From Escherichia phage humlepung, in the sequence record MN850564.1: a stretch of 64,000 bases of DNA; one strand, 5' to 3'. Of the stretch, positions 5,531 through 64,000 are shown one piece after another. Position 1 is the stretch's first letter; each line of letters opens with the position of its first letter. Below the pieces are notes generated by a model, which was not told where the DNA came from, searched no databases, and saw only the letters and a program-made list of their open reading frames with translations. A program made the translations under genes and the position numbers.

Positions 5531-5769
5531 ATGGGTAACACTCTACAGACACCACTAACTGATGCTGCTGTAGAGGCAACCTATGAAGAAGCAGACGAGA
5601 TGAAATTTGTGCTTGCTATTTATGGTATGGAAGGGTGTAAAGAAACACTTGACCAACTCTTTGCTATGACATTCTCTGATTTATTATCATTGAGACAATT
5701 TCTTGAGATTCAGAGGTCGTATAAAGAGGAAATTGCTTACAACGAACTTAGAAGAGCAGGAAAAATGTA

Positions 5770-14919: not shown

Positions 14920-14928
14920 TTTCTTTAC

Positions 14929-14950
14929 AGGGGCTGTATAGCCCCTTTTA
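14929..14950 (+). terminator. hairpin terminator between the two fibre genes
   Basis: AGGGGCTGTATAGCCCCT followed by TTTT; preceded by the CTTTACAG motif shared with the downstream cassette family. Confidence 0.45.
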
Positions 14951-17312: not shown

Positions 17313-17341
17313 TTGACTGATTGTTAAGATGGTGTTAATAT
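17313..17341 (+). promoter_or_regulatory. sigma70-like promoter TTGACT-N17-TAATAT
   Basis: Exact hexamers and 17-nt spacer; -10 sits in the loop of inverted repeat AAGATGGTG...CACCATCTT; same hexamers as the promoter at 57761. Confidence 0.55.
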
Positions 17342-17384
17342 TCTTTATGGGTATTCTCACCATCTTGGCTGATGAGGTGATTAA

Positions 17385-21471: not shown

Positions 21472-21589
21472 AATGACCTCAAAGTTATATTAAATTTTGT
21501 ATTACGTTGAGTATAAAAATAAGCTATAACACCTGACTTGTCAACAGATTTTATAGCTTATTTGGCAGATTTTTTATAAGGCTACTGCC

Positions 21590-21830
21590 ATCCTTCCATA
21601 CTATACCCTACCAAACCGTACCTAACCTCACCCTACCGAACCGAACCGTACCTCATTAAAAGACCCTCTTTAAAGACCTTTTAAAAAGGTAAGTCTCATT
21701 TTAATGTAGCTGAGACTAACTACCCATACCAAACAGCACCGCACTATGCCTTACCCCACCTCACCGAGCCTCGCCCCACATCACTTAAAAACCCTTTTCA
21801 AAGACTCTTAAGTGATGTTGGTGAGTACCC
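21590..21830. repeat. G-poor degenerate tandem repeat (2 units of ~105 bp) in a 560-bp non-coding gap
   Basis: Two units of ACC/CCT-rich sequence each followed by TTAAAA(G/A)ACCCT...AAAGAC; hairpin GTCTCA...TGAGAC between them. Confidence 0.5.
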
Positions 21831-32010: not shown

Positions 32011-32039
32011 TTGACAAAGATTGATAGATTCTATAGAAT
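32011..32039 (+). promoter_or_regulatory. sigma70-like promoter TTGACA-N17-TAGAAT
   Basis: Exact -35, 17-nt spacer, TAGAAT -10; same architecture as the promoter at 32350. Confidence 0.5.
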
Positions 32040-32349: not shown

Positions 32350-32378
32350 TTGACAATAGAGTATCAACAAACTAGAAT
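32350..32378 (+). promoter_or_regulatory. sigma70-like promoter TTGACA-N17-TAGAAT
   Basis: Exact hexamers, 17-nt spacer, ~35 nt upstream of SSB-like gene. Confidence 0.55.
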
Positions 32379-32414
32379 TGGTACTCTTCATAAATTGAGA
32401 TAGAGGTTTAAATA

Positions 32415-42800: not shown

Positions 42801-43358
42801 ATGAATTACGAACTAATATATAATGCAATTATTAAGAAGGCACATTCTGAAAGGGGTGTGCCTCTTACATACTACAAATGTCAAGGTAAGGGTTATGAAA
42901 GACACCATATCATACCAGTGTGTCTAGGTGGCGATAAAATTAGTGGAGATAATATTGCTCTACTTACACCTAGAGAACATTATATAGCTCATAAATTACT
43001 GGTTAAGATGTATCCAAACAACCACAAGTTATGGTTTGCATGGAACAGACTAGCTCATGATGGCCTAGATAGGAAAATATCATCCAGAGACTATGAAAAG
43101 GTAAGGGCTTTGAACTCGAAAGCTTTATCTATTGTGAATAAAGGTAGGGTTTTCACTGAAGAACATCGAAGACGATTAGGAGAATCTCAAATAGATAATA
43201 CAAAATCAAAAGGTTGTAAAAGGTCTATAGAAACAAGGAAGAGGATGTCAGAAGCCGGAAAAAAGCCAAAGAAAAAGAAAACTTGCCCTCATTGTGGTAT
43301 GACTGGTGGTGCTGGTAACATGACTCGATATCATTTTGACAATTGTAAGAAAAAATAA
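42801..43358 (+). CDS. HNH homing endonuclease
   Basis: YERHHIIPVCLGGDKISGDNIALLTPREHYIAH; start at ATG 42801; inserted between nrdD and nrdG. Confidence 0.6.
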   Translation: MNYELIYNAIIKKAHSERGVPLTYYKCQGKGYERHHIIPVCLGGDKISGDNIALLTPREHYIAHKLLVKMYPNNHKLWFAWNRLAHDGLDRKISSRDYEKVRALNSKALSIVNKGRVFTEEHRRRLGESQIDNTKSKGCKRSIETRKRMSEAGKKPKKKKTCPHCGMTGGAGNMTRYHFDNCKKK

Positions 43359-47243: not shown

Positions 47244-47265
47244 GGGGCTTGAAAGCCCCATTTTG
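47244..47265 (+). terminator. putative terminator/attenuator between the Prs-like and NAMPT-like genes
   Basis: GGGGCT-TGAA-AGCCCC followed by ATTTTG. Confidence 0.4.
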
Positions 47266-47279
47266 AGAGAGATTAAAAG

Positions 47280-49061
47280 ATGACTAAATCGCTTTACGCA
47301 GTACCAGCAGGTTTAAACGCAGATGCTTACAAATCTGGTCATGTTTACCAGTACCCTAGTGCAACAGAATACTTGATGTTCAACCTGACACCACGTAGTG
47401 ACAAATGGTTTAACAGCCCCTTAGCAATTGATGGTGTAGTAGCTTTTGGTATTCAACGTTTCGTTAAAGATTACCTGATAGACCACTGGAACGCCACTTT
47501 CTTTGAACGTGATAAAAAAGAAGCAATTGACGAAATCTTAGAAGTTATGAATGGTGTTCTGGGGAAAGATGCTATCGGTCGAGAGCATTGGGAAGCACTT
47601 CACGACTTAGGTTATCTACCAGTTGAAGTGTACGCTGTAGAAGAAGGCACAGTTGTCCCGATGCGTGTCCCAATGATTGTCTTCCAGAACACTGTTTCAG
47701 GTTTCCATTGGGTAGCAGGTTATCTAGAAGACGCTTTCTCTGCTGAGATTTGGAAGACTTGCACCATTGCAACTATTGCATTGCACTACAAACGTATCTG
47801 TAAGAAGTGGGCTGACCTTACTTGCGACAATGAATTACATTTACCTTATCAGTGCCATGACTTTGCTATGCGTGGTATGTCCGGCTTTACCGATGACGCA
47901 TTTAATGCTGTAGGTCACTTAACCAGCTTTAAAGGAACTGATAGCTTCCCTGCTGTATACACGGCTAAACGCATCTATGGACAGTCTTACCCAATTTCTG
48001 ATATTGGTAGTTCTGTACCAGCCACTGAACACTCTGTAATGTGTGCAAACATTGCTTGGGAAGGTGGTAATGAATTGATTGAAGAGGAAAGACGCTTTAA
48101 AGGTGAGTTGCAAACCTTCCGTCGTTTCTTAACAGAAACTTACCCAACTGGTATTGCAAGTATTGTTTCAGATACTTATAACTTCTGGAGAACTGTGTCA
48201 GAAATCTTACCAGCACTTCGTAAAGAAATTATGGAACGTGATGGTAAGCTGGTAATTCGCCCTGACTCTGGAGACCCTGTACATATTGTCACAGGCTATA
48301 AAGCAATCCACTTAGAGTGTGCTAAGAAGGCTTATTACGAACACTTAAGCAAGCTTGAAGCCAGCGACACAATGTTGAATGCTGTTCTGAACATGAAGCT
48401 TGAAAACATCAATTATGGTATTGCTGGATGGCTACTGTCAGAAGGCTACGAAATGGTTGTTGACAGAGAAGACTTTGAAGTTGCTGATACAGTGCTGTTG
48501 AAAAACGCTTATATGGTTGGTTCTGCAAACGTTGTAACACGTCCTGTAGCTGAGATTGATGGAGCTATTAAGACACTGTACAACATCTTTGGGGGAACTA
48601 TTAACTCTAAAGGGTTTAAGGTACTGGATGAGCATATCGGACTTATCTATGGTGACTCTATCACGCTGGAACGTGCAAACGAAATCCTGAAGCGTCTGTA
48701 TGAAATGGGTTTTGCAAGCTCTAACGTAGTGTTTGGCGTAGGTTCTTACACTTACCAGTACATGACTCGTGACACCTTTGCATTTGCTGTCAAAGCAACT
48801 CTTGCAAGCATTGGTGGTAAAGAGATTATGCTTGCAAAAGACCCTAAAACAGATAGTGGTGTTAAGAAATCTGCCTTTGGTGGTGTAGCACCTATGTGGG
48901 ATGGTGACAAGCTGAAAGCTATAGATGGCTATGGATTCCAGAGTTTTGCAGATGTACTTGACCACCCAGCTTGTGCCTTACGTTTAGTCTTTAGTGACTC
49001 TGAGCAGTTCGGTTACACAACTCTTGGGGATATTCGAAATAATATTGACAAGCAGCTTTAA
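47280..49061 (+). CDS. nadV: nicotinamide phosphoribosyltransferase-like enzyme (candidate Namat of NARP1)
   Basis: 593 aa NAMPT/PBEF-family sized protein directly downstream of the Prs-like gene. Confidence 0.7.
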   Translation: MTKSLYAVPAGLNADAYKSGHVYQYPSATEYLMFNLTPRSDKWFNSPLAIDGVVAFGIQRFVKDYLIDHWNATFFERDKKEAIDEILEVMNGVLGKDAIGREHWEALHDLGYLPVEVYAVEEGTVVPMRVPMIVFQNTVSGFHWVAGYLEDAFSAEIWKTCTIATIALHYKRICKKWADLTCDNELHLPYQCHDFAMRGMSGFTDDAFNAVGHLTSFKGTDSFPAVYTAKRIYGQSYPISDIGSSVPATEHSVMCANIAWEGGNELIEEERRFKGELQTFRRFLTETYPTGIASIVSDTYNFWRTVSEILPALRKEIMERDGKLVIRPDSGDPVHIVTGYKAIHLECAKKAYYEHLSKLEASDTMLNAVLNMKLENINYGIAGWLLSEGYEMVVDREDFEVADTVLLKNAYMVGSANVVTRPVAEIDGAIKTLYNIFGGTINSKGFKVLDEHIGLIYGDSITLERANEILKRLYEMGFASSNVVFGVGSYTYQYMTRDTFAFAVKATLASIGGKEIMLAKDPKTDSGVKKSAFGGVAPMWDGDKLKAIDGYGFQSFADVLDHPACALRLVFSDSEQFGYTTLGDIRNNIDKQL

Positions 49062-49075
49062 AAGTATATGATAAG

Positions 49076-49100
49076 AGGCTCCTACGGGAGCCTTTTTAAT
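49076..49100 (+). terminator. rho-independent terminator
   Basis: AGGCTCC-TACG-GGAGCCT followed by T5. Confidence 0.6.
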
Positions 49101-49636: not shown

Positions 49637-52003
49637 ATGCGCATGGTAAACGACCACGCAGAAGTGATTAAGAGTTCAACTTCTTTAGAGACGTCTCAAG
49701 CACAGATTACAATGACACCTGAAATGTTCAGCCTTTTGAGTTCTGGTGTATATACCTTTAAAGAAAGGGCAGTGATTCGTGAACTGTCATGTAACGCAGT
49801 AGATGCTCAGAAAGAAGCTGGAAAAGAGAATATCCCGTTCCATGTGCATTTACCTACTCGTTTTGAGCCTTACTTTGAAGTCCGTGATTTTGGAACTGGA
49901 TTGACTCATGATAAAGTTATGAGTTTGTACCTAAACTACGGGGCTTCTACGAAGAATGACTCTAATGATTACATTGGTGCAATGGGTATCGGCTCAAAAT
50001 CTCCATTTGCAATTGCTCAGTCATTCACAGTATCTAGCTATGTTGACGGTGTTGTTAATAAGTACTCTGTTTATCTTGAGAATGGTATTCCTCAAGTAAC
50101 TAAGCTGACAACTAACCCAACAAAAGAACCTAATGGTTTAGCTGTACGTGTGGCAGTTGCTGACCACCGTATCTCAAAGTTCTTTGAAGAAGCTGGTAAT
50201 GTATACTCATACTTTGCTGTAAAACCAGAAAGTAATATTGTGTACGACGATGTATTAGCAGATATGAACGTCATTGCCCGTGAAGAGGGTGTTTATGATG
50301 CCATGATTCATAAGCAAAGTTGGCGTTCTAGTGGTAACAGGACAGAGTTTAATGTGGTGATGGGTAACATTGCCTACCCTGTTAACATGGAAGCATTACT
50401 TGGTGATGACTTCTTCAAAGTATTGCCAGAATTTTTCCGTAGGAGCGTAGACCTTGTAAACATCTACATGCCTATTGGTTCAGTTGCTATTGCAGCTTCT
50501 CGTGAAGCATTGCAGATGAATGACACGACAAAAAATGTTATCATTGAGGCTACTAAAAAGATAACTGAAGCCATTACAAAGGATGTTATCAAGAAAGTTA
50601 ATAGCCAACCTACACTCATGGATGCTGCACAGGCTTATGCTGAGTTACGTTTGAACTCACGAGAGATGTTTAATGCTGTGTGTCCAAAGCTAGAGTGGGG
50701 AGGCGTTAAGCTTGATTCTCTGGAAGAAGAATTGCTAAACATTCGTCGTGGGATTATCTACGCAGAAGACGGCTCAGTCATTTATGAACGTGACGGTAAA
50801 GGTAATATTAAGGTTGACAGTAAAGGAAACAACATTCCTAAAGTGGACTACCTATACAATCCAGTTGCTTATGTCAAGTTCAACTCTTTAGAGAGTAAGA
50901 TTCGTGCAACAGCACTTTCCTACACTCAAGAGGCAAGTATGTTCAATATCTTTGGTGCAATGCGTAAAAGCCAAATTGAACAGTTTTTGTTCGTGATTAA
51001 TGACCGTCGCAATAAAAACGGAACTGAGAAGACTGTAGGACGCAATCAAATCTTGCGTGGTGCATGTCGAGACTACGCCAACGAGTCAAGTCTGTTTCGC
51101 AGATACAATGGTATTGTGTTTGTATTCTCGACTGAAAAAGAGCTAGATGACTTAATCAACCTACACAAACTTGATAAAAGCTTGTTAAAGATTGTGAAAA
51201 TGTCTGATAAGGAGCACCATTACCAGCGCAAAGAAGCTGTAAGGGGTGTTGTAAAACTCTGGAAAGCTGTTCCATCAGAAACTAAAGCTTCATACACAGA
51301 GGTGTCAGAAGACCTAGATACAATTGAAGAACCCCAGCTTTATATCAAGGCAGTAGGCGACACAGTTGATGGTGAATGTTTTTGCTCATCCCCAGAAGAT
51401 GTAGCTAAAACAATTGCTAATGTTATAGGAAAAACAGTCTATGTTTTCCGAAAAGCAAATTGGAAAAAGATACCAGAAGACTGGATTGAAGTAGATGAGA
51501 AGCTATTGAATGACAGCTTAACTGATGTTCACTGGATTAATCATAACAGGTATATGACACGTATCTATATGAATGGTGTCCTTGACCTTACAAGTAGTTG
51601 GATTATTGCCAGAAACTTTACGTTTAATAACAAGAAGATTTCTCGCGGGTATTGCTATTCACGAGATACAAACAAAACCATCTTCTTAGAAGGTAATGAG
51701 AATGCTGTTGAGGCAATGTTTGGTAAGATTCAGTATGTGGCTGCACCGTTTGCATACACTTACACTATCAGTGTTCTTCAGGATTTGAAGTCATGCCTTG
51801 ACAATGATACAAAACTGTACAAAAAGATTAAGAAAGCGGGTGACCGCATGGTTATCAAACTGACAAACTATCTTTCAAAAAGAAAACAAGAAAACTTCTT
51901 GCTTTCTCATTTAGATTGGAATAAAGTGTCACCCATCGAAGTGAGTAAGTTCTTAGGTTTTGATGTGAAGTGTGTTCCAGAAGGAACTACAATTTACGAT
52001 TAA
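49637..52003 (+). CDS. rIIA: rIIA-like protein (GHKL-type ATPase fold)
   Basis: 788 aa; N-terminal GHKL motifs ELSCNAVDA, DFGTG, GAMGIGSKS; followed by rIIB-sized gene. Confidence 0.6.
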   Translation: MRMVNDHAEVIKSSTSLETSQAQITMTPEMFSLLSSGVYTFKERAVIRELSCNAVDAQKEAGKENIPFHVHLPTRFEPYFEVRDFGTGLTHDKVMSLYLNYGASTKNDSNDYIGAMGIGSKSPFAIAQSFTVSSYVDGVVNKYSVYLENGIPQVTKLTTNPTKEPNGLAVRVAVADHRISKFFEEAGNVYSYFAVKPESNIVYDDVLADMNVIAREEGVYDAMIHKQSWRSSGNRTEFNVVMGNIAYPVNMEALLGDDFFKVLPEFFRRSVDLVNIYMPIGSVAIAASREALQMNDTTKNVIIEATKKITEAITKDVIKKVNSQPTLMDAAQAYAELRLNSREMFNAVCPKLEWGGVKLDSLEEELLNIRRGIIYAEDGSVIYERDGKGNIKVDSKGNNIPKVDYLYNPVAYVKFNSLESKIRATALSYTQEASMFNIFGAMRKSQIEQFLFVINDRRNKNGTEKTVGRNQILRGACRDYANESSLFRRYNGIVFVFSTEKELDDLINLHKLDKSLLKIVKMSDKEHHYQRKEAVRGVVKLWKAVPSETKASYTEVSEDLDTIEEPQLYIKAVGDTVDGECFCSSPEDVAKTIANVIGKTVYVFRKANWKKIPEDWIEVDEKLLNDSLTDVHWINHNRYMTRIYMNGVLDLTSSWIIARNFTFNNKKISRGYCYSRDTNKTIFLEGNENAVEAMFGKIQYVAAPFAYTYTISVLQDLKSCLDNDTKLYKKIKKAGDRMVIKLTNYLSKRKQENFLLSHLDWNKVSPIEVSKFLGFDVKCVPEGTTIYD

Positions 52004-52008
52004 AGTGT

Positions 52009-52038
52009 TTGACAAGGGGCTTCGAAGCCCCTTAGAAT
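52009..52038 (+). promoter_or_regulatory. promoter TTGACA-N18-TAGAAT with perfect GC palindrome in the spacer
   Basis: -35 TTGACA, spacer contains GGGGCTTCGAAGCCCC (doubles as hairpin after rIIA), -10 TAGAAT. Confidence 0.45.
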
Positions 52039-52082
52039 AGCCTTACAAAATGATTTATTAACTAACAAGAGAGAGTAATAAG

Positions 52083-53192
52083 ATGACTACTAAAACTAAA
52101 GCACAGATTGACGCAGAAATTTACGAACTGGTTAAAGAAGGTAAGCTGACTAAAACAGCTATTGCACAGAAATTCAATACTTCAACCCGTTCAGTTGGTC
52201 GTGCTGTAGAGCGTCATGAAGCAACCTTAAAAGGTAAGAAAAAGGTAGCTTCTAAACCAGCTACGAAGACTTTGAAGCAAGTTGCTAAATCAGTTAAAAA
52301 GAAAGCTGACAAACCAGTTGAAAAGGTTGTTAAAGAGCCTGTACAGAAAGCTCCGGTAAATAAACTGCATGAAGCTATGCAGAATGGCAACCAAATTGAG
52401 TACATGATTACTGGCGACTCTGTTATCATGACTTTCGGTGCAGATTCTGAAATCGTTGAATCTACCCATCCGAACTACAAAGAAATCGTGATGGCTGTTG
52501 TATCCGGTGAGTATAAGAAAGCTTTCGAACTGATGAACATTCGTAAGTCTATCGAAAACTTCACTCAGGGTGCTATCACCATCAAAGGTGACAAGTTATT
52601 CTACGGTGCTGTTGAGATGCGTTCTACTCTGGTTGACCGTATTCTTCACATGATGAAGACTGGAGATAAGGGTTTTGAACGCCTTGTGATGTTCTTCGAA
52701 AAACTGATGGAAAACCCATCTAAAGACTCTGTAGAACAACTTTGGGGATTCGTATCTCACCTTGATGTTGAAATTGATGAAGAAGGCTACATCATTGGTT
52801 GGAAGAAAGTCTCTACTCATGAAGGCAAGCTGGTTGACTCCCACACCTACAGAGTACCTAATGATTTGGGTAACATTGTAGAAATGCCACGTTGGATGGT
52901 TGATAATAACCGTAACGTGACTTGCTCTCAGGGTCTTCACGTTGGTGCTTGGGATTATGTTCGTTGCTTCTCAGGTGATACAATCCTGAAGGTTCGTGTC
53001 CATCCACGAGATGTTGTATCTGTTCCAACTGATTACAACGATATGAAGATGCGTTCGTCTCGTTATGAAGTTGCAGCAATCGTTGATAATCAACGTAAAG
53101 TGCTGAAAGAATGGGATGGCAAGACTGAAGCTTTGCATGTCATCGTTGGCACTGCTGGTGAACTAATCTCCCAACGTAAACGTGAAATCTAA
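52083..53192 (+). CDS. rIIB: rIIB-like protein
   Basis: 369 aa directly downstream of rIIA-like gene; basic N-terminal region. Confidence 0.5.
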   Translation: MTTKTKAQIDAEIYELVKEGKLTKTAIAQKFNTSTRSVGRAVERHEATLKGKKKVASKPATKTLKQVAKSVKKKADKPVEKVVKEPVQKAPVNKLHEAMQNGNQIEYMITGDSVIMTFGADSEIVESTHPNYKEIVMAVVSGEYKKAFELMNIRKSIENFTQGAITIKGDKLFYGAVEMRSTLVDRILHMMKTGDKGFERLVMFFEKLMENPSKDSVEQLWGFVSHLDVEIDEEGYIIGWKKVSTHEGKLVDSHTYRVPNDLGNIVEMPRWMVDNNRNVTCSQGLHVGAWDYVRCFSGDTILKVRVHPRDVVSVPTDYNDMKMRSSRYEVAAIVDNQRKVLKEWDGKTEALHVIVGTAGELISQRKREI

Positions 53193-53206
53193 TAAGTAAT
53201 TTCTTA

Positions 53207-53232
53207 AAAGGCTGCTTCGGCGGCCTTTTTTA
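53207..53232 (+). terminator. rho-independent terminator
   Basis: AGGCTGC-TTCG-GCGGCCT followed by T6. Confidence 0.55.
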
Positions 53233-53292
53233 TTTGTATTTTGTGCAGAGTGCTGTATAATTGTTGTCACGATAAACTAAACAGGAGAACCA

Positions 53293-53841
53293 ATGAAGAA
53301 ATTGATTCTAGGTTTGTGCTTAATGTTTACAGCACACTTATCTTATGCAGTTGACTGCCCAGAGCTATCAATTAGCCAAAAAGTAAACATGTTAAAAGCT
53401 TACCAGTATGGTGAGAATAACATGGGTAAAGGTTGGGGTATCACTCTAGCTGCTATAGCCTTACAAGAGTCAGAGTTAGGTCTGAAGGTAGAGAATAAAA
53501 AGACACATGATTATGGTATCTTCCAGAATCACTTGAAGACTGTTGTAAAGCGTAACAAAATTAGTCCTAATGTGGCTAAAAAGAAACTCTTAAAAGACTT
53601 TGACTATGCTGCGAAGGAAACTCACAAAGAGCTTGAGTTTTGGACAAAGGTGCATGGTCAGCCAAAGTCAAAGAAGACTTTACAAAAAGTTTTAGCATCA
53701 TATAATGCTGGGTATTCGTACAAAATCCCTAAAGCTAAGAAATATTCTCAAGATGTCTATAACAACATGAAAGTCATTGCTCAATGTGAATTTGCAATAA
53801 ACATTTCTAAGGTAAACCATGAAAAAATTAAAAAAGTCTGA
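53293..53841 (+). CDS. secreted lytic transglycosylase-like protein (SLT/lysozyme-like domain)
   Basis: Signal-like N-terminus MKKLILGLCLMFTAHLSYA; ALQESELGL...DYGIFQN resembles the SLT catalytic E-S...GxxQ motif. Confidence 0.45.
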   Translation: MKKLILGLCLMFTAHLSYAVDCPELSISQKVNMLKAYQYGENNMGKGWGITLAAIALQESELGLKVENKKTHDYGIFQNHLKTVVKRNKISPNVAKKKLLKDFDYAAKETHKELEFWTKVHGQPKSKKTLQKVLASYNAGYSYKIPKAKKYSQDVYNNMKVIAQCEFAINISKVNHEKIKKV

Positions 53842-55000: not shown

Positions 55001-55024
55001 AGGCTCCTTCGGGAGCCTTTTTCA
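55001..55024 (+). terminator. rho-independent terminator
   Basis: AGGCTCC-TTCG-GGAGCCT followed by T5. Confidence 0.6.
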
Positions 55025-57640: not shown

Positions 57641-57760
57641 AAAGTCAAGAGAAAAATTTGTAGCGGATTGAAAAATAATTCTTGATTTGCGTTCTGTTTT
57701 GTGGTAGTCGTGCGCACCCGTTTCATTACAGTTTTGCCAAAAATATTTTTAAGATTTTTA

Positions 57761-57852
57761 TTGACTCTTTGAACGTGGTTATCTAATATTTACATCAACG
57801 GGGAGGGAATGACCTTCCCCACTAAATAAAATCCTAAACTGGAGATTCAAAA
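57761..57852 (+). promoter_or_regulatory. cassette type 1 (promoter TTGACT-N17-TAATAT, 5-prime hairpin, conserved leader with GGAG)
   Basis: Hairpin GGGGAGGGAATGACCTTCCCC at 57800-57820; leader ACTAAATAAAATCCTAAACTGGAGATTCAAAAATG. Confidence 0.65.
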
Positions 57853-58236
57853 ATGGCATACCGCGCACCGAAATTCATCAATAAAGAAAATTTTCGTAAT
57901 GTATTAGAGAAGGTGCTTGATGAAAAATTTAACGGCAAAATAATTGTTGTTCACGCATACAATTTCAAGTATGATATCAACGGGAATAAAATCAACCATT
58001 ACACGGCAACTATGTTAGATGGCAATCTTTCAAGTGAAAAAGCCGTACTGAATGCACTTGCCGGACGTGGAAAAAACCTGATAAGATGCGATAAGAGACG
58101 TTATCAGGGTGGCGCATATGGTTACGATGATGCTATTTATCATCTTGAAAATATGGGCTATCAAGTAGAAAAAGCTGGAGTATCACAAATCATCGGCAGT
58201 GATGGCTATGTAACAATCTTCAAAATTAACAAATAA
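57853..58236 (+). CDS. cassette gene A, hypothetical
   Basis: 127 aa; starts ATG GCA in conserved leader. Confidence 0.55.
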   Translation: MAYRAPKFINKENFRNVLEKVLDEKFNGKIIVVHAYNFKYDINGNKINHYTATMLDGNLSSEKAVLNALAGRGKNLIRCDKRRYQGGAYGYDDAIYHLENMGYQVEKAGVSQIIGSDGYVTIFKINK

Positions 58237-58322
58237 AGTACTTTACAGGGGGCTTATAGTTCGATAAAGTAAGCCCCAGATAAAGAGCTTTACCACTAAA
58301 TCCTAAATTGGAGAACTTAAAA
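58234..58322 (+). repeat. cassette type 2 (palindrome TAAAGTACTTTA, hairpin, conserved leader)
   Basis: Palindrome begins with upstream stop codon; hairpin GGGGCTTATAGTTCGATAAAGTAAGCCCC without U-tract; shared leader/SD. Confidence 0.6.
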
Positions 58323-58613
58323 ATGGCTATTATCAAAAACGTTGTAATTCCCGCAAAAACTCGTGATGACGCTCGCATCATGGCGAAAAAGTTAGGCGGG
58401 AAAGTGGTTGACAATGGAAAACAATCTGCTGTAAGATGGGGTGTGAAGGCTGATAAACAGTTGAAGTTAAAAAATTCACCGATAAACCTTTTTACATGTG
58501 TAAACACTATCGGGAAGACAAATGTATACACGAAAAAAGCATATATTAGACGCGTAGCATTAACATCCCCCATTCGTACAATGAGAAGTTATGCAAAGCT
58601 GAAAATTAACTGA
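58323..58613 (+). CDS. cassette gene B, small basic protein
   Basis: ATG 58323 (track start is TTG); 96 aa; MAII N-terminus. Confidence 0.5.
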   Translation: MAIIKNVVIPAKTRDDARIMAKKLGGKVVDNGKQSAVRWGVKADKQLKLKNSPINLFTCVNTIGKTNVYTKKAYIRRVALTSPIRTMRSYAKLKIN

Positions 58614-58700
58614 TAAAGTACTTTACAGGGGGCTTAAAAGTTGGTATCTTAAGCCCCAGATAAAGAGCTTTACCACTAAATCCTAAACTGGAGATTCAAA
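58614..58700 (+). repeat. cassette type 2
   Basis: TAAAGTACTTTA palindrome; hairpin GGGGCTTAA...TTAAGCCCC with changed loop; conserved leader. Confidence 0.6.
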
Positions 58701-59213
58701 ATGAAAACTGTAGACGCTACTTTTGAAGTTGTAAAAGAAAAATTCACTATTATTTATGAAGCGGTAAATTGCTACGAAGCAAGCCATAATCTTGATAATT
58801 GGAAGTTTACAGATGACCATCAAGGCGGCGTGACTGTTAAAAACCCTAACTGTCAGCGTAACGATTTTAAATATGCAATCCCTTTAAATTATAGCCTTAA
58901 ACAGCTTTCTAGTGACTATGCAAAACAAGGCCGGGAAAATCCATCAAAAGAGGCTTACGCAAGCTTACAGAAAGAACTAGAAAGAGATTTAGAGGCTTCA
59001 GAGTACAACCTTGCCGCGAAAGTTGTCGATGCAAACGGTAACACGGTTTTAGAAAGTTTTTATCTTGGTTATGCTTTCGATTGGTGCTATAGTGACGGTG
59101 ATGATTTAGAGGAAAGACTAAAAGAAGAGGTGAGCAATTCAGACGCAGAAACTGAAGTATTAGAACGTTTGGAATCGTTGAAAGACTCAGTGATGAATAT
59201 CTTTAAGAACTAA
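58701..59213 (+). CDS. cassette gene C, acidic hypothetical protein
   Basis: 170 aa; acidic C-terminal half. Confidence 0.5.
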   Translation: MKTVDATFEVVKEKFTIIYEAVNCYEASHNLDNWKFTDDHQGGVTVKNPNCQRNDFKYAIPLNYSLKQLSSDYAKQGRENPSKEAYASLQKELERDLEASEYNLAAKVVDANGNTVLESFYLGYAFDWCYSDGDDLEERLKEEVSNSDAETEVLERLESLKDSVMNIFKN

Positions 59214-59305
59214 ATAGATTTCTTTACACGGGGTTATCAAGCTGGTAAGATAGCCCCAGATAAAGAGATTTATCAAATAAAGCCCTTAAACTAGGAGATT
59301 CTAAA
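59214..59305 (+). repeat. cassette type 2 (diverged copy)
   Basis: CTTTACACGGGGTTATC...GATAGCCCCAGATAAAGAG; hairpin retained with a G-U pair. Confidence 0.45.
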
Positions 59306-59602
59306 ATGAAATTATCAAATCAAGTGCGTGAAAATCTGAGCAAATTACTCAACAAAATTGATTTTATCGAGACATCAAGAAATAATCATGATGTTATGGA
59401 ATGGTTGCACGGCAAAATAAAAGGCCGTCGCGTAGTGATTTGCTTATGGAATAGTTGCAGGGAGTATAAAAAACCTGTATTGCAAGTAAATATTTATGAT
59501 GATACTTTTAAAAGTCCAGTAAAGTCTAAAAGTGACTTATTAGAATCCTATGAGATAACTGTAAATGGCAAAGTATCACGTAAAGAGGAAACACCATGTT
59601 AA
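59306..59602 (+). CDS. cassette gene D, hypothetical
   Basis: 98 aa. Confidence 0.5.
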   Translation: MKLSNQVRENLSKLLNKIDFIETSRNNHDVMEWLHGKIKGRRVVICLWNSCREYKKPVLQVNIYDDTFKSPVKSKSDLLESYEITVNGKVSRKEETPC

Positions 59603-59928
59603 TGACTGGCATCACCGCAATCCTTGCCATTTTCGCGCTATATAAGGCATATAAAGCCTATAATCTAGCAAATAAGGCAATCACGCAACAGGTCAATAAT
59701 AGCTTTGTAATGAGCTTTCTGGAGCGTTTAAGTGATGAACAAATAAAACGGTTAGAAATGAGCTTCAGATTTCAATCAAAAACTTATCAAATCAGCGACA
59801 TTTTCAAAGATGATTTTCAGTTAGTCGATGATTATAATTCTCTGATAAATGCTTTAAATGTCAGTGACTTAAAAGACTACTACGCTGTAATTGTTCAAGA
59901 ATTGAGCAAACGAAAAAATTCCTCTTGA
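59596..59928 (+). CDS. cassette gene E, membrane-anchored protein
   Basis: 110 aa; N-terminal TM segment ITAILAIFALY; coupled to gene D. Confidence 0.45.
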   Translation: MLMTGITAILAIFALYKAYKAYNLANKAITQQVNNSFVMSFLERLSDEQIKRLEMSFRFQSKTYQISDIFKDDFQLVDDYNSLINALNVSDLKDYYAVIVQELSKRKNSS

Positions 59929-60015
59929 TTTTGGTTTTTAAAACAAGTAAATTACTAATCAACGGGAGGTAATAACCTCCCCACTAAGTAAAGTCCTTAA
60001 ACTAGGAGATTCAAA
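59925..60015 (+). promoter_or_regulatory. cassette type 1 (TTGATT-N17-TAAATT, hairpin, leader)
   Basis: Hairpin GGGAGGTAATAACCTCCC (compensatory changes on both arms); conserved leader. Confidence 0.6.
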
Positions 60016-60288
60016 ATGTACACTACTAACAACGGTCGCACCTTAAACGTAACCATTCGTCACTATGTGAACGGTGTAATGCACTTCGAAGATTTACAAG
60101 CCGAACAACATATCTTAGATTGGCAACTTGCAGGACTACAAAAAACTGCTACAGGATACGGGAAAAAGATTCCAACCAGTTGGAAAGTATACTACGAAGG
60201 CCGTTTGCGCAGAATTTATCAGGATGTGCAAAGCAATAGCGCATCGAGTTACATCATAGTAAAAGGTAAAAAGCTGCATTTAGTGTAA
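60016..60288 (+). CDS. cassette gene F, hypothetical
   Basis: 90 aa. Confidence 0.5.
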   Translation: MYTTNNGRTLNVTIRHYVNGVMHFEDLQAEQHILDWQLAGLQKTATGYGKKIPTSWKVYYEGRLRRIYQDVQSNSASSYIIVKGKKLHLV

Positions 60289-60374
60289 AGTACTTTACAG
60301 GGGGCTTATAGTTCGATAAAGTAAGCCCCAGATAAAGAGCTTTACCACTAAATCCTAAATTGGAGAACTTAAAA
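60286..60374 (+). repeat. cassette type 2
   Basis: Near-identical to copy at 58234 (stop TAA embedded in palindrome). Confidence 0.6.
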
Positions 60375-60779
60375 ATGGCTATTAATAACCGTGAATTATC
60401 AATCTTAAAAGCACGTTTGACCGTTAACCGGATTAATGTTATCACGTCATCAGCGCCTGATGAGACATTGCACAACATTATCGGGAAGATTCAAAGCGTT
60501 ATCTTAGACGTTGAAAACGTAAAAAAATCATTGGCTGACGTTGCATCAGGTATCACGCTAGACGGCGCACAATATGAAATGGCTGACATGTTAGGCAAAT
60601 CAAAGATAATGAATAAAGAGCTTGATTTAAAAATGTTTCGATTTGCTGTTAAAGTATGGCTATCCGTCGAGTATGACGCTAATTTTGCAATCGCTGATTT
60701 CTTTGCCACTTGGTTACAACGTAATTTGACAAATCACGATTTTCGTGATGTCTGTGATGCAATTTATGCAGAACTCTAA
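60375..60779 (+). CDS. cassette gene G, hypothetical
   Basis: ATG 60375 (track start TTG); 134 aa; MAIN N-terminus. Confidence 0.5.
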   Translation: MAINNRELSILKARLTVNRINVITSSAPDETLHNIIGKIQSVILDVENVKKSLADVASGITLDGAQYEMADMLGKSKIMNKELDLKMFRFAVKVWLSVEYDANFAIADFFATWLQRNLTNHDFRDVCDAIYAEL

Positions 60780-60787
60780 AAATTTTG

Positions 60788-60879
60788 TTGACACCGGTTT
60801 TTAGATAGATTAAATTACACATCAACGGGGAGGGAGTGACCTTCCCCACTAAGTAAAGTCCTAAACTGGAGATTCTAAA
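60788..60879 (+). promoter_or_regulatory. cassette type 1 (TTGACA-N17-TAAATT, hairpin, leader)
   Basis: Hairpin GGGGAGGGAGTGACCTTCCCC. Confidence 0.65.
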
Positions 60880-61083
60880 ATGGCTATTATTAACGGCTTA
60901 AACATTGAAACTACACACATCAAAGATATCAAAGTTGGCGATATAGTCCTTTCCCACGGCGTAGAAAAAACTGTCACTACAAAGGATATCAAAGAGGATT
61001 CTTTCATGGGTAGGACTCTCTTCGGTGATTCTTATTGCTTAGGGTATCTTGCAGTCTTAAAAGTTGTCAAAAATAACAAATAA
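60880..61083 (+). CDS. cassette gene H, small hypothetical
   Basis: 67 aa; MAII N-terminus. Confidence 0.5.
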   Translation: MAIINGLNIETTHIKDIKVGDIVLSHGVEKTVTTKDIKEDSFMGRTLFGDSYCLGYLAVLKVVKNNK

Positions 61084-61169
61084 AGTACTTTACAAGGGGC
61101 TTATAGTTCGATAAAGTAAGCCCCAGATAAAGAGCTTTACCACTAAATCCTAAACTGGAGATTCAAAAA
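61081..61169 (+). repeat. cassette type 2
   Basis: TAAAGTACTTTACAAGGGGCTTATAGTTCGATAAAGTAAGCCCC...leader. Confidence 0.6.
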
Positions 61170-61712
61170 ATGAAATGCTTTCACGGTACTACTCAAGAAA
61201 ACTTTATCAACCTGATTAATAATGGTGATAAGCCATCAGGTGCATGGAATTGTTCGGATATGGACGGCAATTTTTACGTGTACCCAGAAAATAAAATCTA
61301 TGGCGACGATGAGGAAGAGATAATCTCTGAAGGTATCCAGCAAGCGTTAGGTAATGCCACTATTACGGCCGCTTTCCAGATGAAAACCCAAAATATTGTT
61401 ATCTTAGAACTTGATATCCCAGAGGATGACCTAAATGACGATTATTCTTGTGATAATATGTCTGGCGTAGCAAGTTTTACAGAATACTTCGATTTAAATT
61501 GGATTAAAAAGGTTTACGTAACAGAGTTTAACGCTATGTATTCGCCTTTTTGTCTTCCTTCATTGGATAACCCAAATTTAAATTATCTTGATGAGTCTCT
61601 GGAGCTTCTTGCTAAAAGTGTCCAACAGTCGGACAGTATTCAGGTTTTTTGTGACATCATGGACACACTAACGGGAAACATCGCAGAAGAGGATTTAAAG
61701 AGCTTTTTCTAA
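61170..61712 (+). CDS. cassette gene I, acidic hypothetical protein
   Basis: 180 aa. Confidence 0.5.
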   Translation: MKCFHGTTQENFINLINNGDKPSGAWNCSDMDGNFYVYPENKIYGDDEEEIISEGIQQALGNATITAAFQMKTQNIVILELDIPEDDLNDDYSCDNMSGVASFTEYFDLNWIKKVYVTEFNAMYSPFCLPSLDNPNLNYLDESLELLAKSVQQSDSIQVFCDIMDTLTGNIAEEDLKSFF

Positions 61713-61744
61713 AAACCTATGCAATCGCCTTATAAACACTGATT

Positions 61745-61764
61745 AGCCCCTCACAGGGGCTTTT
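61745..61764 (+). terminator. rho-independent terminator
   Basis: GCCCC-TCACA-GGGGC followed by TTTT. Confidence 0.5.
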
Positions 61765-61778
61765 AAGAGGCTTAAATC

Positions 61779-62012
61779 ATGCTTACAACCGTTTATCTTA
61801 TCCTTTCTATTTGTAATGGTCATTCATGTGATTTTAAAGGGCTTGAGGAGTTTACAGGAAGTAAAGAAAATGCTGTTCAGGTCTGTCAGATAGCAAGGCA
61901 AGACTACCCCGCCAGTGATGACATACAATGTTACTTTAAGACAGAAGATGAAGATGGTATCTATTTCGATAGTGTAGACGGTCAATATGAAATAATTATA
62001 GAAAAAGACTAG
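61779..62012 (+). CDS. cassette gene J, small Cys-containing protein
   Basis: 77 aa; RBS AAGAGG. Confidence 0.45.
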   Translation: MLTTVYLILSICNGHSCDFKGLEEFTGSKENAVQVCQIARQDYPASDDIQCYFKTEDEDGIYFDSVDGQYEIIIEKD

Positions 62013-62102
62013 ACAAGCCTGATAAAAATCTGTAAATTACTAATCAACGGGGAGGGAATGACCTTCCCCACTAAACAAAATCCTAAACTGGAGATTCAAA
62101 AA
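62010..62102 (+). promoter_or_regulatory. cassette type 1 (TAGACA-N17-TAAATT, hairpin, leader)
   Basis: Hairpin GGGGAGGGAATGACCTTCCCC at 62049-62069. Confidence 0.6.
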
Positions 62103-62444
62103 ATGGCTTATGTAACCGTAATTACCGATAAAGCTGGCGCATCTTGGTCAACTCAGGTTAGTGATAAGATGTCGCCTATGCAGTGCCTAAAATACTTTGA
62201 ACAGTGGAACAAAGGCGAGGACACAAGCCCCTTTCACGTAATGCAGATTATTCATGTAGACAATGAAGGGAAGAAAACAACTCTGAATAGTGAGTACTAC
62301 GCAAGCCGTTTTGAAACGAGAAGTAAAGCAATGAAGCTCTTACGTGAGGCCGGATATGGTCACATTGCCGCGATAATCTGGGATGACCTTCTAAAAAGTC
62401 AACGTATCAGCTATGTAAAGCCTGAAAAAATATTCATCAGTTAA
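62103..62444 (+). CDS. cassette gene K, hypothetical
   Basis: ATG 62103 (track ORF starts inside the hairpin at 62058); 113 aa. Confidence 0.5.
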   Translation: MAYVTVITDKAGASWSTQVSDKMSPMQCLKYFEQWNKGEDTSPFHVMQIIHVDNEGKKTTLNSEYYASRFETRSKAMKLLREAGYGHIAAIIWDDLLKSQRISYVKPEKIFIS

Positions 62445-62573
62445 TCAATAACTTACAAAAAACTTTTAAAAAAGTGTTGACAATACCCCTTGACATTGGT
62501 AACTTTGTTCGAGGGGGTTTATCTAAAAGGGATTCACTTAAAAGATTCTTTATAGATAAGCTTAAAAAATTGC

Positions 62574-62663
62574 TTGCAATCAGCTATCAAAACAAGTAAA
62601 TTACTAATCAACGGGAGGGATGACCTCCCCACTAAATAAAATCCTTAAACTAGGAGAGTCAAA
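62574..62663 (+). promoter_or_regulatory. cassette type 1 (TTGCAA-N17-TAAATT, hairpin, leader)
   Basis: Hairpin GGGAGGGATGACCTCCCC; additional TTGACA motifs at 62475-62495 upstream. Confidence 0.6.
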
Positions 62664-63194
62664 ATGAACAAGTTTAAAGCTATCAACTTCATTCGTTCAA
62701 ATGCTGTAATGTCAAAACCTGTAAAAGACACATACGAATTTCGCTGCAATGGGGTACACTTTGCAACCATCACTAAGTCAGAAAACGGGGCTTATTACGT
62801 ACATCGTCGTAATGTTGCAACCGTTGTAGTCTCTCACTTTATGCAAGCTGTAGCGGAGTTATTACCGTTATTCTTAGAGATTTATCTAGGTGAGTGTAAA
62901 AACGTTCGTAACCACGTTAAAAACCTTTTAAACGGTTATAAAATGGCTTATGAACGTTCTATCAAGTCCTTGAACAAGTTCTATAAATCCCCTGTAAATA
63001 CTGTTTCAATGGCTTACACTGTAAGCGGTGAGTTGGTTAGCCTCTTCGAAGTAGAAGAAATTGAACTATATGACTCACGTCCTAGCGGTTACTCTAAGAC
63101 ACTGGGAGAAGGATTATCTTTCAATATCAAGAACTTAGAAAAAACTTTAAAAGATATTGAAAAAGATATTGACGAGACAATCAAAAGTCTGTAA
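62664..63194 (+). CDS. cassette gene L, hypothetical
   Basis: 176 aa. Confidence 0.5.
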   Translation: MNKFKAINFIRSNAVMSKPVKDTYEFRCNGVHFATITKSENGAYYVHRRNVATVVVSHFMQAVAELLPLFLEIYLGECKNVRNHVKNLLNGYKMAYERSIKSLNKFYKSPVNTVSMAYTVSGELVSLFEVEEIELYDSRPSGYSKTLGEGLSFNIKNLEKTLKDIEKDIDETIKSL

Positions 63195-63260
63195 ATTGTC
63201 AATCAACGGGGAGGGAATGACCTTCCCCACTAAATGAAGTCCTAAACTGGAGATTCTAAA
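63169..63260 (+). promoter_or_regulatory. cassette type 1 (TTGACG-N17-TAAATT, hairpin, leader); -35 lies inside the 3-prime end of gene L
   Basis: Hairpin GGGGAGGGAATGACCTTCCCC at 63208-63228. Confidence 0.6.
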
Positions 63261-63509
63261 ATGGCTACTATCCGCGCAACTGTTAACGAATTCGGCTTCT
63301 ACTCTCTGGACGTTAAATTTGACCTTGTAGGTACTGATAACACCTTTGAAATGGTGAAAGGCCTTATCAGCCAGACCATCAGTGACTACAACCCCTCTGA
63401 TGAATTCTGGAAAGAAACAAAACAGGAAGTTCTCAAAGAGGGTTATACATACCACTACTGGGGTGAAAAAATTGTCTCCCTGTACTACGACAAAAAAGGC
63501 ACTAACTAA
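63261..63509 (+). CDS. cassette gene M, hypothetical
   Basis: 82 aa; MATI N-terminus. Confidence 0.5.
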   Translation: MATIRATVNEFGFYSLDVKFDLVGTDNTFEMVKGLISQTISDYNPSDEFWKETKQEVLKEGYTYHYWGEKIVSLYYDKKGTN

Positions 63510-63547
63510 ACGCCGCAACGGGGCTAAATAGCCCCAGATACCTTTAC

Positions 63548-63575
63548 AGCCCCTTTCCCATAGGGGCTTTTTTAC
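63548..63575 (+). terminator. rho-independent terminator closing the cassette array
   Basis: AGCCCC...GGGGCT followed by T6; preceded by a type-2-like hairpin GGGGCTAAATAGCCCCAGATA. Confidence 0.55.
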
Positions 63576-64000
63576 GTCTTATCAAATCCCTTATACAACC
63601 CTTTCCCTTTCCTTTCCAGAATCTTATCAGACCTTAAAAAGCAATAACTCTATAGTCTACTCTATAGCCTTTTATCAAATCAACTTAAATATAAGCCCAT
63701 AACCCGAAAGGGAAGGGCAACCGTTTAAACGCTCTATAAAGCTCTATAACAGCCTTATCAACCTAACTTAAGGGATTGCATTAACTCACCCTAAAAAGCC
63801 CTTTATAAAGCTTCCCAGAGACTTAAAAGAATCTTATAAGGGTGTAAGCTTTATTATCTCGTTAGCTATCTTGTGAACTACTAAACAAGCCCCTTGATAG
63901 TAACTGAAAAGTATGTTATAGGGGCTTTAAAGTTACTTTGAAGTGGCTTAAAAGTTACGTAAATGCTAGCCCCCTTAACATTTTCTTAACAATTTCTTAA
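63576..64000. repeat. non-coding repeat-rich region (CTTATCA x5, CTCTATA x4, AAGTTAC x2)
   Basis: No ORF of 60 aa or more on either strand; short direct repeats and pyrimidine-rich tracts. Confidence 0.5.

Follow-up and report, generated by a model that had tools for sequence, protein, structure and literature searches.

A candidate PeSL-like composite of promoter and stem-loop at the rIIA/rIIB junction of a Felix O1-like coliphage

In phage T4, rIIB is reached by read-through from rIIA and also has promoters of its own near the rIIA end. These T4 promoters are of the MotA-dependent middle type and lie inside the rIIA coding sequence. Promoters combined with a hairpin are known as promoter-early stem-loop (PeSL) cassettes from the T4-like phages phi1 and RB49 (Arbiol et al. 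2010, PMC2839356; Comeau et al. 2014, PMC4122927). PeSLs are sorted into five classes by the position of the stem-loop, the commonest having it between the -35 and -10 hexamers or overlapping the -10 (PMC2839356). Direct reading of the phi1 hyperplastic region gave TTGACA-GGGGATCACCGATCCCC-TATACT for the ORF206/205 gap, TTGACA-GGGGATCGGGAGATCCCC-TATAAT for another gap and TTGACA-GGGGATCGGTGATCCCCT-TATAAT for the gap 5' of ORF210, with three further gaps alike. In reporter assays, a wild-type clone of PeSL206/205 drove expression at about 13,000 Miller units, and insertion of the PeSL211/210 stem-loop 5' of lacZ lowered expression to about the same extent as rrnB T1 (PMC2839356). For Felix O1, the genome paper left open how transcription is timed without an encoded RNA polymerase and how the numerous terminators are passed (PMC3185647).

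The window analyzed here is a stretch of 64,000 nucleotides from Escherichia phage humlepung (MN850564.1), which is placed in Felixounavirus (Ounavirinae, Felix O1-like coliphages). Its rII region is 99% identical to that of Escherichia phage nataliec and 93% identical to that of Felix O1. The ORF list contains rIIA at 49637-52003 on the + strand (788 aa, stop TAA at 52001-52003); its product is RIIA by PHROGs (PHROG 612, E=3.9e-189), BLAST concurs, and the gene is annotated rIIA in relatives. The list places rIIB at 52083-53192, also on the + strand (369 aa), the product being RIIB according to PHROG 609 (E=3e-88), a tblastn match to T4-type RIIB and the annotation in relatives. The two co-oriented genes are separated by a gap of 79 nt (52004-52082). 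A canonical intrinsic terminator with a UUCG tetraloop and a T-run lies 3' of rIIB at 53206-53229 (+ strand) and closes the unit; its counterpart is listed as t2 in Felix O1 (PMC3185647), and a terminator after rIIB is annotated in the wV8, AYO145A and Barry records. The junction was read in 30 IMG/VR relatives and in Barry, Felix O1, SUSP2, phiEa21-4, phi63_307, Wc4 and LPML1.

Downstream of the rIIA stop codon follow AGTGT, the -35 hexamer TTGACA (52009-52014, + strand, 6/6 consensus) and an A. GGGGCTTCGAAGCCCC then occupies 52016-52031 and is followed by a T, the -10 hexamer TAGAAT (52033-52038, + strand, 5/6 consensus, 18 bp past the -35), AGCCTT and an A at 52045. A 16-bp GC palindrome flanked by these two hexamers is what the initial annotation had described at the junction, and it is present as described. 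The sigma-70 site matches the consensus at 11 of 12 positions with a spacing of 18 bp, within the 16-18 bp of PeSL promoters, and the spacer (52015-52032) consists of A, GGGGCTTCGAAGCCCC and T. With the closing A of the -35 and the opening T of the -10 included, the spacer forms a perfect palindrome of 20 bp, AAGGGGCTTCGAAGCCCCTT (52014-52033), longer than any other perfect palindrome of the window. The corresponding hairpin has an 8-bp stem with 5 G-C pairs, a core of GGGGCT/AGCCCC (52016-52021 and 52026-52031) and the loop TCGA (52022-52025). The RNA fold of the element has an energy of -15.3 kcal/mol (z=-2.3), with the hairpin at about -13 to -15 kcal/mol. Transcription is predicted, from the sequence and standard sigma-70 geometry, to start at the conserved A at 52045 (+ strand), 7 nt past the -10, which would give rIIB a leader of 38 nt (52045-52082, + strand). 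This segment is strongly conserved in relatives, including SUSP2, and carries a purine-rich, Shine-Dalgarno-like AAGAGAGAG at 52067-52075, 7 nt 5' of the rIIB ATG. The 20 nt 5' of the -35 are mostly rIIA coding sequence and contain 75% A+T compared with 61% in the window, without an A-tract like the TAAAAAAGTTG of phi1.

The resemblance to the PeSLs is close. Both occupy a gap between a stop codon and an ATG, both have near-consensus sigma-70 hexamers followed by a Shine-Dalgarno sequence and a start codon, and in both a hairpin of a G-run and a C-run exactly fills the 17-18 bp spacer, so that the phi1 examples are nearly superimposable. [quoted passage not shown] Neither the phi1 PeSLs nor the present element has a U-tract, because the -10 directly follows the stem. 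There are also differences. The host genome belongs to the Ounavirinae here and to the Straboviridae in the described cases. The rIIA/rIIB element is present as a single copy between two conserved genes and not in a hyperplastic region; PeSLs form a repeated family near ORFans, whereas the exact pattern matches only once per genome here. An indel or recombination boundary, as is typical of PeSLs, was not seen at rIIA/rIIB in 36 relatives, in which the synteny of the two genes is unchanged and no gene has been gained or lost at the position of the element. Promoter and attenuator assays exist for the phi1/RB49 elements, whereas the rIIA/rIIB element is known from its sequence. On this analysis the element fits the structural definition of a PeSL, not the genomic one, and would work like a PeSL. 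The design is a known one and not a new mechanism, and so far it has been described only in T4-like phages. When compared with T4, the locus is alike in having a promoter for rIIB at the rIIA/rIIB boundary besides read-through, and differs in that a plain sigma-70 consensus with an embedded hairpin lies here in a 79-nt gap.

The stem GGGGCT/AGCCCC and both hexamers are kept, with few exceptions, in 33 junctions from Felixounavirus, Suspvirus and Moogle-type phages. Conservation within the gap is highest from TTGACA to TAGAAT in all three genera. The 3' coding DNA of rIIA is about 90% identical within a genus and 62-65% identical between genera, and the neighboring coding DNA is about 90%, or 62-84%, identical in the 33 relatives. 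The exceptions are a -35 of TTGACT in one relative, a C.A mismatch in the stem of two (L006, L030), and position 3 of the -10, which varies so that all relatives carrying the element have TAGAAT or TAAAAT. Positions 52040-52044, between the -10 and the predicted start, are variable, as are the bases immediately 5' of the -35. Felixounavirus has a spacer of 18 bp, Suspvirus and Moogle-type phages one of 17 bp. Loops in Felixounavirus are TCGA, TTGA or TCAA, those of the other two genera GAAA or GCAA; the GNRA loops (GAAA, GCAA) occur in Moogle-type phages and SUSP2, and GAAA also in phiEa21-4. What is conserved, given the fixed stem and the variable loop, is thus a hairpin between two hexamers. 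That the palindrome is perfect, as had been noted, turned out to be incidental: most relatives have TTTGAA or TTCAAA in the center and keep the stem alone, and the perfect form is peculiar to the present genome, a one-base accident of its loop. A scan of IMG/VR for the exact pattern yielded 26 contigs with the element, each having a single copy, always at rIIA/rIIB.

Identity profiles of the rIIA 3' and rIIB 5' regions in 27 loci step across the junction in 3 loci, which is no commoner than inside rIIB; a preference of recombination for the junction was rejected on these 27 loci in favor of general mosaicism. Physical genome ends at the junction, as the records of Moogle and Michonne (L022, L023) might suggest, were also rejected, since these records were most likely re-opened at rIIA, and the convention of opening the genome record at rIIA is stated in the Felix O1 paper (PMC3185647).

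Palindrome length was not accepted as evidence. Perfect palindromes reaching at least 20 bp occurred in 8 of 200 dinucleotide-shuffled versions of the window and GC-rich ones of at least 16 bp in 8 of 100, so length alone is not significant because 4-8% of shuffled windows hold one of that size. Sigma-70 sites with at least 11/12 matches number 6 in the window compared with 2.56 ± 1.56 in shuffles, and the estimated probability that a given 79-nt gap contains one such site, correctly oriented, is about 0.002. A chance coincidence of palindrome and promoter-like hexamers with no function could appeal to the frequency of such palindromes and to the roughly 2.6 sites of at least 11/12 expected per window. 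This reading is hardly credible given the exact joint placement, the rank of the block as the best-conserved part of the gap in 33 relatives and its occurrence once per genome, always at this junction; from the sequence comparison, the pattern of conservation effectively refutes it. That the palindrome nests exactly in the spacer of such a site, within a short gap between co-oriented genes, is, taken together with the conservation, far beyond chance.

The initial annotation had proposed a double use of the same bases, as a terminator-like hairpin for rIIA transcripts and as the spacer of a promoter for rIIB. The promoter part has held up. Assignment of 52009-52038 as the rIIB promoter is well supported because the hexamers are invariant across three genera while their flanks diverge; further evidence comes from the GenBank record of AYO145A, where the homologous 30 bp are annotated as a promoter "with 1bp mismatch", and from the timing of rIIB. 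RT-PCR signals in Felix O1 were maximal at 10 min for rIIB (ORF2) and at 25 min for rIIA (ORF1), in an end-point, semi-quantitative assay (PMC3185647 Table 3); this difference is the sole experimental hint that the two genes are controlled separately. No promoter is annotated at the junction in the wV8, Felix O1 and Barry records, and neither the Felix O1 annotation (PMC3185647) nor that of wV8 has a promoter or a terminator there.

The terminator-like part of the proposal remained an inference by analogy. A GC-rich hairpin 11 nt 3' of the rIIA TAA has the position of an intrinsic terminator, and the intrinsic terminators at 49073-49096, 53206-53229 and 55001-55018 likewise have a GC-rich stem of 6-8 bp and a 4-nt loop about 11 nt past a stop codon. 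These terminators of the phage differ from the junction hairpin in having at least 5 T in 8 and a UNCG-type loop, both of which it lacks. Its tail is UUAGAAUA, with 3 U in 8, and a terminator scan requiring at least 5 T in 8 called the hairpins at 49073, 53206 and 55001 and did not call that at 52014-52033. With no U-tract, canonical intrinsic termination should be weak and at most partial, and a terminator or attenuator function of the hairpin is probably weak. An Rfam scan of 51500-53500 returned only sub-threshold noise, none of it at the element. In the literature searched, no transcript maps or stem-loop promoters were found for Felix O1-like phages and no mapped transcript ends for any Ounavirinae phage.

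In deeper branches of the Ounavirinae the hairpin persists and its stem is replaced. LPML1, whose RIIB is 57% identical, has TTGACA, 17 bp and (TGg)TCTAAT, with the hairpin AAGTGGTC-TAATAA-GGCCACTT lying over the -10. Wc4 has TGGTGGC-CTAACAA-GCCACCA directly past a weak TTGACC-N18-AAAAAT. The gap of phiEa21-4 and phi63_307 measures 51 nt and contains GGGCTG-GAAA-CAGCCC, which is not surrounded by consensus hexamers; the two 10/12 sites within the rIIA end of these phages are no more than expected by chance. The hairpins of LPML1, Wc4 and phiEa21-4, 6-8 bp long and just 3' of rIIA, have unrelated stems (AAGTGGTC, TGGTGGC, GGGCTG) and fold z-scores of -2.9 to -3.0, and each of the gaps compared folds better than its own shuffles (z -2.0 to -3.0). 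A U-tract after the junction hairpin is absent from the gaps of LPML1, Wc4, phiEa21-4 and phi63_307. The turnover of stems is described qualitatively here, as hairpins of different genera are not unambiguously alignable (MAFFT shifts that of phiEa21-4 by one base). Judged from these comparisons, a hairpin directly 3' of rIIA is the most deeply conserved feature of the junction, its stem sequence having been turned over completely, and promoter hexamers are recognizable around or beside it in most, not all, genera. Pairs of the G.U type occur on the + strand in LPML1, Wc4 and the type 1 cassettes of the window described below, and the loop measures 4 to 7 nt across genera. Retention of a GNRA loop through the change between GAAA and GCAA, the + strand G.U pairs and the loop lengths of 4-7 nt point to selection on a transcribed RNA and not on a DNA-binding site. 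A motif CTTAAAC lies 0-2 nt past the hairpin in phiEa21-4 (L032 1126-1150), Wc4 (L033 891-925) and LPML1 (L035 1597-1625). As a distinct signal it was rejected, since in the window it belongs to the leader of the cassettes, 5' of the Shine-Dalgarno sequence, and shows no enrichment otherwise.

The hairpin of phiEa21-4, lacking hexamers, must have a function there that is independent of a promoter, and if rIIB of that phage is expressed from upstream, its hairpin must allow read-through or at least cannot be a strong block. The presence of a hairpin 3' of rIIA in every Ounavirinae junction examined, including the hexamer-less phiEa21-4 and phi63_307, and the maintenance of structure while stem sequences turn over would suit a stem-loop that simply ends rIIA as a decay barrier, pause site or weak attenuator in a co-transcribed unit, with hexamers that initiate little or nothing. 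The GC-rich spacer of 18 bp is suboptimal for sigma-70 and would fit as well. Such a reading is nevertheless unlikely, as TTGACA and TAGAAT/TAAAAT are held across three genera while adjoining bases diverge, and an 11/12 match in a gap of this length has the low probability given above. PeSL promoters of identical design are very strong (PMC2839356), and the rIIB peak in Felix O1 is earlier than that of rIIA (PMC3185647).

A related reading gives the hairpin priority without denying the promoter. The hairpin (stems GGGGCT, GGGCTG, TGGTGGC and AAGTGGTC) may be the primary RNA element of the whole subfamily, with a job other than termination, around which hexamers were assembled independently in several genera. 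It would serve as a decay barrier setting the rIIA:rIIB ratio or as a handle for a phage or host factor. We regard this as rather unlikely; if it were true, Ounavirinae and T4-like phages would be convergent or horizontally linked users of hairpin-bearing promoters.

The opposite position is that only the promoter matters. Sigma-70 promoters are modulated by the composition of their spacers, and the palindrome might accordingly be a DNA-level spacer that tunes promoter strength, or might extrude as a cruciform under supercoiling that joins the hexamers and silences the promoter, with no role as RNA. The exact spacer size of the palindrome agrees with this, as does the missing U-tract, from which little termination is expected. 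It is improbable in view of the loop bases, which vary freely while pairing is kept and while GNRA is retained through the GAAA/GCAA change. Hairpins moreover persist at junctions without a promoter and are shifted over the -10 in LPML1, and the G.U-type pairs on the + strand of LPML1, Wc4 and the type 1 cassettes point to transcribed RNA.

The dyad GGGGCT-N4-AGCCCC could also be an operator, bound by a dimeric repressor of the rIIB promoter, for which RIIB itself is a candidate. Conserved half-sites around a variable center are seen in many operators, the dyad occurs four times in the window, and RIIB residues 10-46 match several HTH families below threshold, with HTH_Tnp_ISL3 as the best (E=9.6e-5). 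LPML1, with different arms (AAGTGGTC) and a spacing of 6 nt, has an identical putative recognition helix, TSTRSVGRAVERH, so that half-site and spacing are not kept there together with the helix, and in phiEa21-4, where the arms are GGGCTG, the helix is nearly identical. The loop length of 4-7 nt between genera also disagrees with an operator, and the same stem is found in ordinary U-tract terminators and, in reversed arm order, elsewhere. An operator is thus highly improbable, and autoregulation by an HTH of RIIB was rejected because arms differ between phages that have the same recognition helix. The copies of GGGGCT-N4-AGCCCC in the window are at 14924-14946, 47244-47259, 52016-52031 and 63520-63535, and the reversed order (AGCCCC..GGGGCT) occurs at 61745 and 63548. 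The N-terminus of RIIB (window 52110-52220, residues 10-46) shows sub-threshold similarity to HTH_Tnp_ISL3 (E=9.6e-5), HTH_23, HTH_11 and HTH_29, and its motif TSTRSVGRAVERH is conserved across Ounavirinae genera. We know of no DNA-binding domain described for RIIB.

The anatomy of the element, its pattern of conservation and the identity of its design with the PeSLs are plain from the data, and they are best explained by a composite PeSL-type promoter/stem-loop cassette, which is probably what the junction contains. Use of the bases as hairpin for rIIA and spacer for rIIB, as first proposed, is the best-supported reading, with a published experimental precedent for both uses in the PeSL cassettes (PMC2839356); promoter activity, the start site and any attenuation we infer. 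As duplex DNA, 52009-52038 would act as a promoter for the host sigma-70 polymerase, and rIIB transcripts would begin at about A52045, carry the 38-nt leader and end at the terminator at 53206-53229. In polymerases arriving from upstream through rIIA, the spacer would be transcribed and its RNA would fold into the 8-bp GC-rich hairpin, with the -10 sequence serving as an A/U-rich hairpin tail in the read-through RNA. The hairpin may attenuate or pause read-through, terminate weakly and/or leave a protected 3' end on the rIIA mRNA. Transcripts from the internal promoter would not contain the hairpin and would be immune to it. The net effect would be a partial uncoupling of rIIB from rIIA and a shielding of the promoter from upstream transcription.

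No current view is overturned by such an element, which is real and of a fairly ordinary regulatory kind. It extends a design hitherto known from T4-like phages to a second lineage of myoviruses, and it adds to annotation a site missed at the junction in most records. PeSL-like composites also offer a testable model of early units, in which each cassette would end or shorten the transcripts that reach it and initiate new ones. In the engineering of therapeutic Felix O1-like phages, insertions at such junctions would alter both the RNA ends upstream and initiation downstream.

Further composites of promoter and hairpin are present in the window. The initial annotation had the hairpin-in-spacer form recurring in the type 2 cassettes and at 17313; overlap of promoter and hairpin was confirmed there, and the form lying wholly within the spacer was not, because the hairpins in question enclose the -10. 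Only 52009-52038 has a hairpin wholly within the spacer in the window. In the type 2 cassettes (at about 58.24, 58.62, 59.22, 60.29 and 61.09 kb), GGGGCTTA...TAAGCCCC has TTTACA directly at its 5' foot, and exactly 17 bp past this hexamer there is TAnnnT (TAAAGT, TATCTT or TAAGAT), which is kept though the loop sequences differ; from this arrangement, these cassettes probably contain a promoter. At 17313-17366, TTGACT-N17-TAATAT is enclosed by AAGATGGTG...CACCATCTT with the -10 in the loop, and at 32350-32400 the -10 of TTGACA-N17-TAGAAT lies in the loop of AGAGTAtC...GgTACTCT. These composites share with the junction a -35-like hexamer at the 5' foot of the hairpin and a -10 located 16-18 bp downstream; they differ in that the hairpin encloses the -10 (32350, 17313, type 2) or just follows it (49045, type 1). 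TT(G/T)ACA abuts the 5' foot of a hairpin in 7 of 35 cases on the + (transcribed) strand and in 0 of 35 on the - strand. A third TTGACA-N17-TAGAAT at 32011 overlaps the palindrome ATTCTATAGAAT. At 49045-49096, TTGACA-N16-TATGAT (11/12) ends 0-3 nt before the terminator hairpin AAGAGGCTCC-TACG-GGAGCCTTTT; its predicted start lies inside the 5' arm, so its transcripts should escape a terminator that stops those from upstream.

In the hyperplastic early region at 57727-63600, two types of repeated cassette, both different in sequence from the rIIA/rIIB element, lie between small ORFs. The type 1 cassette consists of TTGACx-N17-TAAATT followed, about 10 nt into the transcript, by the hairpin GGGGAGGG-AATGA-CCTTCCCC with a G.U pair, then by ACTAAAT..CCTAAACTGGAGA and ATG. 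The layout of type 2 is CTTTACA-GGGGGCTTA..TAAGCCCC-AGATAAAGAGCTTTACC. Homology breakpoints of relatives coincide with cassettes at about 57.8, 58.23, 58.61 and 63.25 kb; they correspond to query positions 95-136, 532, 907 and 5553-5566 of the region, of which at least 80% was covered by 51 of 257 records. By its sequence, the region looks like a case of PeSL-style modular shuffling in a Felix O1-like phage, and the presence of repeated cassettes that resemble true PeSLs in the same window lends weight to the idea that this lineage follows the same regulatory grammar.

Two other regions of the window were noted. The gap of 343 nt between divergent genes at 21472-21814 contains a hairpin with a 13-bp stem, AAATAAGCTATAA..TTATAGCTTATTT, and two series of short degenerate repeats (5-10 nt) in which ACC and CCTA are frequent (TACCCTACCAAACCGTACCTAACCTCACCCTACCGAACCGAACCGTACC); it may serve as a divergent promoter region or as an origin. 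The ORF at 42802-43358 (about 185 aa) has HNH-type and NUMOD-like motifs recognizable by eye (..ERHHIIPVCLGGD..N..H..) and probably encodes a homing endonuclease inserted between early genes.
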